Positions 9,340 to 33,940 of a stretch of DNA of 64,000 nucleotides are shown here, in pieces. This DNA comes from Escherichia coli (GTDB taxonomy: Bacteria; Pseudomonadota; Gammaproteobacteria; Enterobacterales; Enterobacteriaceae). The translations under genes were made by a program, and so were the position numbers. Within the stretch, counting starts at the first letter, position 1. Every line of letters starts with the position of its first letter. The stretch lies in NCBI RefSeq assembly GCF_003790525.1, contig NZ_CP033635.1, one strand, 5' to 3'. The notes under the pieces were generated by a model. The model had not been told where the DNA came from, did not search any database, and saw nothing but the letters and a program-made list of their open reading frames with translations.

Positions 9340-9481
9340 GGTAAAGCCCTCACCGAAGCGAGGGCTTGAAGGAGAAGGGTTATGATGCGACTTGTCATCA
9401 TACTGATTGTACTGTTACTCATAAGTTTCCCAGCTTATTAACAGTCAGTCTCAGGGGAGGAGTCATCCTCCCTTACCCTTA
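9340..9481 (-). ncRNA. sibC: SibC-like antisense sRNA (antitoxin of the ibsC type I toxin-antitoxin pair); ends approximate
   Basis: Fully antisense to the ibsC mini-ORF; a sigma-70-like promoter on the minus strand (TTGACA, 17-nt spacer, TAATTT, plus-strand 9488-9516) and a minus-strand hairpin plus U-run near 9346-9365. K-12 places SibC (RygC) between serA and fau. Confidence 0.45.
9382..9441 (+). CDS. ibsC: Ibs-family type I toxin, 19-aa hydrophobic peptide
   Basis: ATG ATG CGA ... TAT TAA encodes MMRLVIILIVLLLISFPAY, preceded by SD gaaggaga; matches the Ibs toxin family pattern. Too short for the ORF track. Confidence 0.6.
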   Translation: MMRLVIILIVLLLISFPAY

Positions 9482-9487
9482 CTCACT

Positions 9488-9516
9488 AAATTAGGTTAAA
9501 GAATCAACGATGTCAA
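9488..9516 (-). promoter_or_regulatory. Candidate sigma-70 promoter for sibC
   Basis: Minus strand reads TTGACA-17 nt-TAATTT; predicted transcription start near plus-strand 9481. Confidence 0.35.
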
Positions 9517-10162: not shown

Positions 10163-10348
10163 AGGGAATCTCCGAGATGCCGCCGCAGGCTGTAACCCTT
10201 GAACCCTTGGTTCAAGGTGAATGTGTCGTCGCAGTTTTAAGGCTTCTCGGACGGACCGAGCATGCTCACCAACCGCGGAGCGCCACATTCTTGTGGTATG
10301 AAATATCGGCTCAGGGGACTGGCCCGCTTGCGAACATCTCAGAGAAAT
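10163..10348 (-). ncRNA. ssrS: 6S RNA (RNA polymerase sigma-70 holoenzyme regulator)
   Basis: Reverse complement reads AUUUCUCUGAGAUGUUCGCAAGCGGGCCAGUCCCCUGAGCC...GGCAUCUCGGAGAUUCCCU, which matches E. coli 6S RNA as I recall it; lies between zapA and fau. Ends within a few nt. Confidence 0.9.
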
Positions 10349-30134: not shown

Positions 30135-31652
30135 ATGTCTGAACAAAACGCACAGGGCGCTGACGCGGTAGTCGATCTTAACAATGAACTGAAAACGCGT
30201 CGTGAGAAGCTGGCGAACCTGCGCGAGCAGGGGATTGCCTTCCCGAACGATTTCCGTCGCGATCATACCTCTGACCAATTGCACGCAGAATTCGACGGCA
30301 AAGAGAACGAAGAACTGGAAGCGCTGAACATCGAAGTCGCCGTTGCTGGCCGCATGATGACCCGTCGTATTATGGGTAAAGCGTCTTTCGTTACCCTGCA
30401 GGACGTTGGCGGTCGCATTCAGCTGTACGTTGCCCGTGACGATCTGCCGGAAGGCGTTTATAACGATCAATTCAAAAAATGGGACCTTGGTGACATCCTC
30501 GGCGCGAAAGGTAAACTGTTCAAAACCAAAACCGGCGAACTGTCTATCCACTGTACCGAGCTGCGTCTGCTGACCAAAGCACTGCGTCCGCTGCCGGATA
30601 AATTCCACGGCTTGCAGGATCAGGAAGCGCGCTATCGTCAGCGTTATCTGGATCTCATCTCTAACGATGAATCCCGCAACACCTTTAAAGTGCGCTCGCA
30701 GATCCTCTCTGGTATTCGCCAGTTCATGGTGAACCGCGGCTTTATGGAAGTTGAAACGCCGATGATGCAGGTGATCCCTGGCGGTGCCGCTGCGCGTCCG
30801 TTTATCACTCACCATAACGCGCTGGATCTCGACATGTACCTGCGTATCGCGCCGGAACTGTACCTCAAGCGTCTGGTGGTCGGTGGCTTCGAGCGTGTAT
30901 TCGAAATCAACCGTAACTTCCGTAACGAAGGTATTTCCGTACGTCATAACCCAGAGTTCACCATGATGGAACTCTATATGGCTTACGCAGATTACAAAGA
31001 TCTGATCGAGCTGACCGAATCGCTGTTCCGTACTCTGGCACAGGATATTCTCGGTAAGACGGAAGTGACCTACGGCGACGTAACGCTGGACTTCGGTAAA
31101 CCGTTCGAAAAACTGACCATGCGTGAAGCGATCAAGAAATATCGCCCGGAAACCGACATGGCGGATCTGGACAACTTCGACTCTGCGAAAGCGATTGCTG
31201 AATCTATCGGCATCCACGTTGAGAAGAGCTGGGGTCTGGGCCGTATCGTTACCGAGATCTTCGAAGAAGTGGCAGAAGCACATCTGATTCAGCCGACCTT
31301 CATTACTGAATATCCGGCAGAAGTTTCTCCGCTGGCGCGTCGTAACGACGTTAACCCGGAAATCACAGACCGCTTTGAGTTCTTTATCGGTGGTCGTGAA
31401 ATCGGTAACGGCTTTAGCGAACTGAATGACGCGGAAGATCAGGCGCAGCGCTTCCTGGATCAGGTTGCCGCGAAAGATGCAGGTGACGACGAAGCGATGT
31501 TCTACGATGAAGATTACGTCACCGCACTGGAACATGGCTTACCGCCGACAGCAGGTCTGGGAATTGGTATCGACCGTATGGTAATGCTGTTCACCAACAG
31601 CCATACCATCCGCGACGTTATTCTGTTCCCGGCGATGCGTCCGGTAAAATAA
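30135..31652 (+). CDS. lysS: Lysine--tRNA ligase
   Basis: 505-aa [36 protein letters not shown]; 9 nt downstream of prfB. Confidence 0.93.
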
Positions 31653-31671
31653 GCATTACGTTATGCTCACA

Positions 31672-31697
31672 ACCCCGGCAAATGTCGGGGTTTTTTA
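31672..31697. terminator. Terminator hairpin shared by convergent lysS and idi
   Basis: ccccggca-aatgt-cgggg hairpin followed by tttttt on the plus strand; overlaps the idi 3' end. Confidence 0.55.
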
Positions 31698-32243
31698 ATT
31701 GTGCTGCGCGAAAGCAGACAACAATTTTCTTGCTTCACTATTGGCTGCCTGCATCACCATCCACGGACTGAACGCCCACGGCGTGGCATCAATACCGTGT
31801 AATACATCTGCTAAATCACACCATTGATAATCCATCACTTCATCATCGTTGATCTGTAACGCACTGGTGGTGCGTGCGGCAAATACCGGACACACTTCAT
31901 TTTCCACAATGCCATTCGGATCGGTGGCGCGATAGTAGAAGTCAGGATAGATAGATTCAGGAGGCGTAATTTCCACGCCAAGCTCATAACGGCAACGGCG
32001 GATCACCGCGTCTTCGTTGCTTTCTCCCAGTTGTGGGTGCCCACAAACCGAGTTAGTCCACACGCCAGGCCACGCTTTTTTGCTAAGGGCGCGGCGGGTA
32101 ACTAATAATTGCCCTTTGGCATTAAACAGCCAACTGGAAAACGCGAGATGTAAGAGGGTGTCTGCCGTGTGTGCGGCATACTTTTCCAGCGTACCCGTGG
32201 GAACTCCCTGTGCATTCAATAAAATGACGTGTTCCGTTTGCAT
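31695..32243 (-). CDS. idi: Isopentenyl-diphosphate delta-isomerase (Nudix fold)
   Basis: 182-aa [29 protein letters not shown]. Confidence 0.9.
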
Positions 32244-32364
32244 AATTTCTCACATGTAATTCTAATCACTCATCATTATAGATAATTGAAGAGTGAAATG
32301 ATTAACCAAGTGAGCGTTTATCGACAACCGCCCGTTTTGAGCGGATGTCGACAGGTAAAACCAT

Positions 32365-32490
32365 TTAAAAAAGCAGCATCATATATTTGAAGCGACTTTC
32401 AATGGCCATTGCAACACAGTCAGAAATGACAGGAATAGAGAGAGTAAAAAGCAACAACAGACTGAATATAGCGCGCATTAAAAGATTCAT
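32365..32490 (-). CDS. Small hydrophobic protein, 41 aa (possibly the K-12 small protein YqfG; identity unverified)
   Basis: Minus-strand ATG at 32490 preceded by SD GGAGA, 2 nt after the uacT stop; encodes MNLLMRAIFSLLLLFTLSIPVISDCVAMAIESRFKYMMLLF. Not in the ORF track because it is under 60 aa. Confidence 0.4.
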   Translation of the reverse strand: MNLLMRAIFSLLLLFTLSIPVISDCVAMAIESRFKYMMLLF

Positions 32491-32491
32491 A

Positions 32492-33940
32492 TTATTCTCC
32501 ATGCTCATTTTTCTTCAGCTTGCGCATCAGAAGCCACATACGTACTGTCCTGACTTTTAAATCTTTATCAGAGACGGATTCCTTCACCAGGTCAGCATGA
32601 TGCTGGTAGCCATTAAAGAAGACGTTCAGCACAACGGCGCTAAGGGTTGCGAGCATAATGCCGCTATGCAGCAACGGTTGCAGTACGGCCGGTAACTTAG
32701 AAAAGAAATCGTGAGAGAGCGTCGGAGTCATGCCAACGCCGAGACTGATCGCCACAATATAGAGGTTGTAACGGTTGGTGGTGTAGTTACAGCGCGACAG
32801 AATTCGAATCCCTGTCGCCAGTACCATGCCGAACATCACCAGCCCTGCGCCGCCAAGCACAAATTGCGGAATCGAGGCGACCAGCACCGCCATTTTGGGC
32901 ACCATGCCAAACATGATTAATATAATTCCCGAAGAAATACACACCCAGCGGCTATGAACGCGCGTCACGCTAACCAGGCCAACGTTTTGTGAAAATGACG
33001 TGTGGGGGAAGCTGTTAAACGTTCCGCCTATCATTGTCCCTACGCCATCGACACGCAGCCCGCGAATAATATCGTGTGAAGAGAGTTTACGACCGACTAT
33101 TTCACCCAGTGCCAGGAACATCCCCATCGACTCGATAAACACGATGATTAACACGGCAGTCATGGTCAGAATGGAAACGGGATCGAAAATCGGCATACCA
33201 AATGACATCGGCGTGACAATCGCAAACCACGAGGCATCATGTAGCCCGGATAAATTGACTTCATTCATCATCCACGAAAGTAAAAAGCCAAATACAATCC
33301 CCAGTAATACGGCGACGTTGGACATAAATCCTTTCGCATAGCGAGTAATGAGCAAGATAAAAATTAAGACAGCAAAGGAGATACCTAAATAAACGGGATT
33401 ACCATATTGCGGATTCCCTTTACCTCCTGCGGCCCAGTCAATACCCACCTGAATGATGCTAAGTCCGATAGAAGTAATCACCACACCGGTAACCAGTGGC
33501 GGGAATAAAGGCATCAAGCGACCGATAAGTGGCGCTAATAATGTGGTGATAAAACCCGCGGCGATAGTGGCACCAAATATCCCCAGCAGGCCGATATCCG
33601 GGTTCATCCCAATGGCTATCATTGGTGTTACAGCGGCGAAGGTCACCGACATAATCACCGGCAGGCGGATCCCCATAAAGCGGCCGATACCGATACATTG
33701 CAATAATGTGACGATCCCGCAGCAAAAGAGATCCGAGCTAATGAGCATCGCAATAGCTTCTTTTGAGAGGCCCAGTCGGTCGCCAATCATAAGAGGAACA
33801 GCGACTGCACCTGCGTACATGACAAGGACGTGTTGCAGACCGAGTATGATCAGCTTTCCTGGTGATAATATGCGGTCAACCTCATCAGTTGGGCGGTCTT
33901 GCCCTGAAGATGAGGGAAGTTGGGAATCTATGGCGCTCAT
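32492..33940 (-). CDS. uacT: Uric acid transporter (NCS2/NAT family permease)
   Basis: ORF track 525 aa; trimmed to MSAIDSQLPSSSGQDRPTDEV (482 aa) with SD aaggaga. Confidence 0.85.
   Translation of the reverse strand: MSAIDSQLPSSSGQDRPTDEVDRILSPGKLIILGLQHVLVMYAGAVAVPLMIGDRLGLSKEAIAMLISSDLFCCGIVTLLQCIGIGRFMGIRLPVIMSVTFAAVTPMIAIGMNPDIGLLGIFGATIAAGFITTLLAPLIGRLMPLFPPLVTGVVITSIGLSIIQVGIDWAAGGKGNPQYGNPVYLGISFAVLIFILLITRYAKGFMSNVAVLLGIVFGFLLSWMMNEVNLSGLHDASWFAIVTPMSFGMPIFDPVSILTMTAVLIIVFIESMGMFLALGEIVGRKLSSHDIIRGLRVDGVGTMIGGTFNSFPHTSFSQNVGLVSVTRVHSRWVCISSGIILIMFGMVPKMAVLVASIPQFVLGGAGLVMFGMVLATGIRILSRCNYTTNRYNLYIVAISLGVGMTPTLSHDFFSKLPAVLQPLLHSGIMLATLSAVVLNVFFNGYQHHADLVKESVSDKDLKVRTVRMWLLMRKLKKNEHGE

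Follow-up and report, generated by a model that had tools for sequence, protein, structure and literature searches.

In the window –the whole stretch of 64,000 nucleotides of Escherichia coli DNA analyzed here (GCF_003790525.1, contig NZ_CP033635.1)– the genes follow the order gcvP...prfB-lysS / idi-yqfG-uacT / ygfT...xdhD, which corresponds to a purine and urate utilization cluster. Two small ORFs on opposite strands lie between uacT and idi. The features are the following:

32492..33940, minus strand: uacT, urate/proton symporter (RefSeq annotation of an identical strain mapped to the window, and ORF list)
32496..32500, minus strand: yqfG Shine-Dalgarno GGAGA, within the last uacT codons and 5 nt upstream of the ATG (read from the sequence)
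32365..32490, minus strand: yqfG CDS, 41 aa plus stop, small inner-membrane protein of predicted type II topology (identical to WP_001050745.1)
32357..32360, plus strand: A4 run within the 3' untranslated region of yqfG, where K-12 and most E. coli have A5 (alignment with the K-12-like and L011 alleles)
32298..32390, plus strand: yqfH allele of 30 aa (23 aa in K-12), with the K-12 start and first 21 residues (WP_223344823.1)
31695..32243, minus strand: idi, isopentenyl-diphosphate isomerase, the downstream neighbor (ORF list and RefSeq annotation)

The minus-strand ORF opens with the ATG at 32490..32488, ends with the stop at 32367..32365 and translates as MNLLMRAIFSLLLLFTLSIPVISDCVAMAIESRFKYMMLLF. 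Its translation is identical to K-12 YqfG at 41 of 41 residues (WP_001050745.1), and it occupies the K-12 position, between uacT and idi and on the uacT strand (order uacT-yqfG-idi-lysS), with the same 1-nt spacing from uacT. Compared to the K-12-like allele there is one synonymous difference, which leaves the protein unchanged. The sequence-only reading had offered YqfG as a tentative identity, and both the full protein identity and the shared position bear it out. It had also called the 41-codon ORF unannotated, and this does not hold: in window-identical strains RefSeq annotates YqfG (WP_001050745.1) at the same coordinates, as it also does in a K-12-like genome, and it lists the 30-aa ORF as hypothetical protein WP_223344823.1. 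Thus, yqfG is not an unannotated gene. Both yqfG and yqfH are catalogued E. coli small proteins, already known, and the observation is real but ordinary. We are confident that the minus-strand ORF is yqfG, which closes a uacT-yqfG unit as its last cistron, and that the plus strand carries a local yqfH allele.

The region is nearly universal in the species. By megablast, positions 32200-32560 matched 5,392 of the 5,426 complete E. coli genomes, and the features annotated under the matches were 'yqfG: protein YqfG' together with 'protein YqfH' or 'hypothetical protein'. YqfG itself is annotated in about 5,390 of the 5,426 genomes. The median was one matching place per genome, so the yqfG region is single-copy. 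One of the 5,401 matching places was on a plasmid-class record, either a chromosomal fragment assigned to the wrong class or a captured segment, as it could be. YqfG had no Pfam match even at E<=10, and the only NCBIfam match of the peptide was ComGG, a noise-level match at E=0.2 and 12 bits, the cutoff being 40. PGAP evidently assigns the names of these small proteins by sequence identity.

The coordinates proposed from the letters were exact: the ATG at 32490 with GGAGA upstream (32500..32496), the ORF of 41 aa just past the uacT stop, and the plus-strand ORF of 30 codons at 32298-32390 with its partial antisense overlap. The uacT stop TAA occupies 32494..32492 and leaves 1 nt before the yqfG ATG. 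Since this gap is so short and the Shine-Dalgarno lies inside uacT, yqfG would most likely be translated by ribosomes coupling from uacT. Two further in-frame minus-strand ATGs are found within the uacT gene, at 32502 and 32508, and starting there the product would have 45 or 47 aa (MSMENNMNLL...). The annotated start is that of the 41-aa product, one of three candidate in-frame ATGs, and longer versions of YqfG (56-66 aa) are called in some database entries. In the cryptic clades and in E. albertii the Shine-Dalgarno reads GGTGA, the change being silent in a Gly codon of uacT. The Shine-Dalgarno is weaker in these other Escherichia species, a point against the reading given here for yqfG.

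On the plus strand, a TTG-start ORF of 57 aa (MKRLSMAIATQSEMTG...; window 32387-32560) runs antisense over all of yqfG. A 43-aa version of it is open in E. albertii (L012 1785-1916) and in 'Citrobacter sp.' MGH106 (L014 8313-8444). This frame probably just follows from the codon content on the other strand.

Outside E. coli, YqfG is restricted to close relatives. Among 5.8 billion proteins searched, its relatives were confined to Escherichia and Shigella, with one exception, a 'Vibrio' entry. The latter (P0042) is a partial 'protein YqfG' of Vibrio parahaemolyticus on a 216-nt contig, and it is probably E. coli contamination of the assembly. We also scanned one genome per species, for 100,044 species, with a codon-degenerate DNA pattern of the conserved core of yqfG. 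Six genomes matched: E. coli, E. albertii, E. whittamii, two further Escherichia species, and 'Citrobacter sp. MGH106'; this strict pattern gave no match in E. fergusonii. The pattern forced IPVISDC and E-S-R-F/Y and left VAMAI and KYMMLLF free; the invariance of the C-terminus across the scan matches is therefore partly by construction. At all the scan-match loci examined –cryptic clades, E. albertii, and MGH106 included– yqfG was intact and directly followed uacT, and in these three idi came next, as in the window.

MGH106 (L014, NZ_KQ089822.1, 7620-9866) carries an Escherichia-type uacT-yqfG-idi locus, and the dS of its yqfG against E. coli is 0.37, that of E. albertii being 0.32. The genome may be mislabelled or belong to a close relative of Escherichia.

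At the codon level, yqfG behaves as a protein-coding gene. Frame-disrupting variation was absent from it: the frame was intact in all ten Escherichia-type sequences aligned, with mostly synonymous change. Between the window and the cryptic clades, E. albertii, E. whittamii, and others we counted 7-9.5 synonymous and 1-6.5 non-synonymous differences, small counts for a gene of only 41 codons, which give a dN/dS of 0.03-0.14 at a dS of 0.25-0.50. The amino-acid changes are conservative and fall in the N-terminal hydrophobic segment (M5I, A7T, F15L, T16M, L17I), and the C-terminal 23 codons show 1-4 synonymous and 0-1 non-synonymous changes. The yqfG frame is under purifying selection across Escherichia, and from this invariance we infer that the predicted extracytoplasmic tail is functionally important. 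YqfG is thus a good example of a small membrane protein restricted to one genus, with clear purifying selection and an invariant tail on the predicted outer side.

The length of the ORF says little by itself. An ATG-initiated ORF of at least 41 aa arose in 386 of 2000 mononucleotide shuffles (19%) of the 277-nt region, and the peptide belongs to no Pfam or NCBIfam family; both points would suit a chance ORF in a non-coding spacer. The lengths of both yqfG and yqfH are within chance, and the case for genes rests on conservation, annotation, and published experiments. For yqfG, a chance origin is hardly credible: we rejected it in view of the purifying selection in its frame, the frame kept intact across the genus, and the protein documented in the literature (PMC4597795, PMC10470546).

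The published biochemistry concerns the identical sequence. PMC4597795 (eLife 2015) credits the first report of YqfG to Hemm et al. 2008, as one of their small membrane proteins; the same source describes it as a small membrane protein of unknown function, with a TMHMM prediction of type II topology (N-in/C-out). In that study, HA-MBP-YqfG was membrane-integral and was cut by wild-type RseP, not by the E23Q mutant, and proline scanning of Ile8-Phe15 modulated the cleavage. A later study (mBio 2023, PMC10470546) confirmed YqfG as a class I substrate of RseP: bearing any of three different tags, it was cut by the plasmid-borne and the chromosomal protease, and the purified enzyme cut it in vitro. 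YqfG has even become a standard model substrate of this protease. The constructs of the RseP assays were N-terminally tagged and mostly expressed from plasmids. The searchable literature assigns no function to YqfG or YqfH.

Our sequence analysis is in line with these reports. The sequence-only reading described a single-pass membrane peptide, and we found one hydrophobic segment, its best 19-aa window at residues 4-22 with a KD of 2.18 (GRAVY of the protein, 1.44). The published assays show that YqfG inserts into the inner membrane and is cut within the membrane by the site-2 protease RseP. Its predicted topology would place the N-terminus in the cytoplasm and a C-terminal tail of 12-15 residues outside, which is consistent with cleavage by RseP, and proteolysis would then set the level of YqfG. 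PMC10470546 lists other small membrane proteins and remnant signal peptides that RseP cleaves: YkgR, Blr, YshB, HokB, and HokE. YqfG resembles them in being short, single-pass, and predicted type II, in its very small extramembrane parts and its class I assignment, and in the helix-destabilizing residues of the membrane segment (S10, T16, S18, P20). Unlike them, it is no toxin as far as known, and it is linked in an operon to a transporter gene.

YqfG could also be a signal-peptide-like precursor, in which signal peptidase I would cut after VAMA(29) and free the 12-residue periplasmic peptide IESRFKYMMLLF, RseP clearing the remnant as with ordinary signal peptides. Read from the sequence, the protein has an n-h-c layout (MNLLMR, hydrophobic core, P20, and the small-x-small stretch A27-M28-A29), the C-terminal 12 residues are invariant, and the RseP authors picked YqfG for its likeness to signal peptides (PMC4597795). 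Natural variants, however, alter the A-x-A motif to VVMA and VAFT. Besides, HA-MBP-YqfG remained membrane-integral and was only slightly shortened by RseP, with no signal-peptidase product reported (PMC4597795). We consider this processing improbable, and an integral type II membrane protein is the form retained here. A lipoprotein was rejected as well: the residues before Cys25 are I-S-D (read from the sequence), unlike the lipobox L-[AS]-[GA]-C.

The small hydrophobic peptide facing an overlapping antisense transcription unit recalls a type I toxin-antitoxin module, with a toxic YqfG held under a transcript from the yqfH side, and Hok toxins are likewise cleaved by RseP (PMC10470546). Several observations speak against such a module. 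Rfam gave no antitoxin RNA match at or near threshold in 31500-33000, and yqfG lacks both a promoter and a leader of its own –no promoter was called– and is fused to uacT. In K-12 the overlap is just 4 nt, and the gene is single-copy (median of one place per genome). Moreover, YqfG constructs were expressed in the RseP studies with no toxicity reported in the available parts of PMC4597795 and PMC10470546. This candidate, very improbable in our view, was rejected for its missing antitoxin RNA and missing promoter or leader.

For YqfG as a type II membrane protein cut by RseP, the leading guess is that it would assist or modulate some membrane protein; UacT comes first among the candidates because of the gene linkage and the strongly constrained tail. 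In its strongest form, YqfG would serve the urate transporter UacT specifically, as accessory subunit or regulator, RseP setting its level. We regard this as possible although rather unlikely. In its favor are the 1-nt gap with the Shine-Dalgarno inside uacT, the adjacency of uacT and yqfG in every Escherichia locus examined, and a tail that is invariant despite synonymous change. However, adjacency by itself is weak evidence, and yqfG is confined to Escherichia, whereas UacT-type transporters are much more widespread. Small proteins that act on transporters include AcrZ on AcrB, KdpF on KdpABC, MgtS on MgtA, and SgrT on PtsG. YqfG is like them in size and in having a single membrane helix, by analogy only, and like KdpF it is encoded in a transporter operon. 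The candidate link between YqfG and UacT is operon linkage, read from the sequence.

The plus-strand ORF at 32298..32390 translates as MINQVSVYRQPPVLSGCRQVKPFKKAASYI; its last 26 nt (32365..32390) are antisense to yqfG. In a K-12-like genome the same place holds the 23-aa 'protein YqfH'. K-12 YqfH, MINQVSVYRQPPVLSGCRQVKTI, lies between uacT and idi and was found by chromosomal epitope tagging (VanOrsdel et al. 2018, PMC6001520); it was also detected by targeted (PRM) mass spectrometry (PMC12529367). The window allele shares its start codon, strand, position, and first 21 residues. It differs in its length, 30 aa instead of 23, in its antisense overlap with yqfG, which grows from 4 to 26 nt, and in its label, PGAP calling the product 'hypothetical protein' and not YqfH. 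The alignment explains the difference: compared to the K-12-like sequence, the window carries three substitutions and one deleted A in the A5 run. The deletion shifts the yqfH frame, replacing the C-terminal TI with PFKKAASYI, so that the K-12 protein becomes ...VKPFKKAASYI. It lies just downstream of the yqfG stop, and therefore YqfG is untouched. Thus, the earlier interpretation stood for YqfG, but it missed that the antisense ORF is YqfH and that its 30 codons come from a strain-specific 1-nt deletion.

To place this allele in the species, we counted exact matches of 48-49-nt probes in the 5,426 genomes:

K-12 allele, YqfH of 23 aa: 2,993 of 5,426 genomes
Window substitutions with an intact A5 run, YqfH of 23 aa: 1,466 of 5,426 genomes
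Window deletion allele, YqfH of 30 aa: 270 of 5,426 genomes (about 5%)

The 30-aa YqfH is a minority frameshifted allele, one step from the standard yqfH. In about 5% of E. coli genomes, a lengthened YqfH is hidden under the 'hypothetical protein' label.

The spacer holds further elements that overlap yqfH or lie beside it:

32319..32353, minus strand: conserved 15-bp hairpin, 12 nt past the yqfG stop and inside yqfH codons 8-19 (folding and covariation)
32298..32327, minus strand: idi sigma-70 promoter proposed by SELEX (PMC3946193, placed on the window by reading the sequence)
32275..32280, minus strand: perfect TATAAT upstream of idi, an alternative idi -10 (alignment, invariant in ten taxa)

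As RNA of the yqfG sense, the hairpin folds at a dG of -22.9 kcal/mol (z -5.3). Among eight distinct Escherichia sequences, 92.5% of cells pair, compared with 31-54% in the slid controls. At three pairs both partners have changed, with CCGC/GCGG in E. coli standing for CTGT/ACAG in E. albertii as an example. The strand matters: the invariant G-U pairs are workable on the yqfG strand only, and stability across sequences is uniform on that strand (-18.7 to -22.5 kcal/mol) and varies more in the antisense (-9.9 to -20.4). Like Rho-independent terminators, it is a GC-rich stem-loop just past the last stop codon of an operon. It differs from them in having no U-tract after the stem, where the sequence is AUAAACGCUCAC, and the intrinsic-terminator scan made no call at 32319-32353. 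The hairpin may mark where the uacT-yqfG transcript ends at its 3' side, or protect that end.

Regarding idi, genomic SELEX proposed a sigma-70 promoter, TTGTCG-18-AATCAT (PMC3946193), whose -35 falls within the 3' arm of the hairpin and whose -10 contains the complement of the yqfH ATG. A consensus promoter scan called nothing in the yqfG-idi spacer, the SELEX-proposed promoter included. The TATAAT at 32275..32280 has no good -35 alongside, and no promoter was called there.

Rfam at permissive E-values returned only sub-threshold noise in 31500-33000, the only hit reaching 19 bits against a gathering score of 100. Elsewhere in the window, on the minus strand, it matched a Sib antitoxin RNA (136 bits) and the 6S RNA ssrS (140 bits), at 9366-9516 and 10165-10348, which are known K-12 features near zapA and fau.

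At the protein level, yqfH does not share the stability of yqfG. Frame-disrupting variation is present in the antisense ORF beyond about codon 17, and the length of the product changes among relatives as follows:

17 aa: cryptic clades and E. whittamii
23 aa: most E. coli
23 aa: 'Citrobacter sp.' MGH106, sequence differing after residue 9
30 aa: window allele
30 aa: E. albertii, with a different middle
61 aa: L013, with a +1 insertion after codon 6

The last of these, L013 (NZ_JAATUR010000026.1, E. coli SCPM-O-B-8794), has AAACC for AAAC just 3' of the hairpin, which opens the 61-aa yqfH ORF. This genome is its own GTDB species representative though labelled E. coli.

A short ORF, yqfH is transcribed away from idi, in the divergent direction; it is translated in K-12, and here the 1-nt deletion lengthens it from 23 to 30 residues. 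We lean toward YqfH, the 30-aa allele included, being translated but functionless as a protein, its C-terminus drifting freely and its first ~17 codons kept by the overlap with the hairpin and the idi promoter. This probable reading complements the identification of yqfG and yqfH given above. It fits the length and frame that vary among close relatives (17, 23, 30, 61 aa), the omega of 0.35-0.98 in the more distant comparisons, the covarying hairpin of codons 8-19 that suits the opposite strand better, and a start codon within the proposed idi -10 (PMC3946193). Against it, the K-12 protein was detected by tagging (PMC6001520) and by targeted mass spectrometry (PMC12529367), and the first 17 codons show an omega of ~0.1 within E. 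coli and the nearest clades, although over very few sites. The conservation of these codons can be explained by the hairpin and the idi promoter together; since they overlap both elements, the protein is probably under little selection of its own. The unstable frame among relatives likewise points to weak selection. Altogether, yqfH looks weakly selected or unselected as a protein, though it is translated in K-12. A 'validated' small protein with an unstable frame over an RNA structure and a promoter calls for caution before equating detection by tagging or mass spectrometry with function.

We can join these elements in one tentative reading, to which we give somewhat less than an even chance. 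The hairpin would be an uncharacterized RNA element, conserved in the genus, that sets the 3' end of the uacT-yqfG mRNA or protects it, and that insulates the overlapped idi promoter; separately, YqfG would be an accessory of UacT tuned by RseP. If the hairpin is indeed an RNA element, the apparent conservation of YqfH would be largely its by-product.

Finally, E. coli HUM3355 was checked for a joint loss of uacT and yqfG and proved uninformative on that point, the whole cluster being deleted. In this genome (L019, NZ_CP093317.1, 4038-5443), an IS1A copy adjoins an idi gene that is slightly short, at 543 nt; yqfH, yqfG, uacT, and the purine cluster beyond them are all absent, and the next intact gene is actS, which resembles a large IS1-associated deletion.
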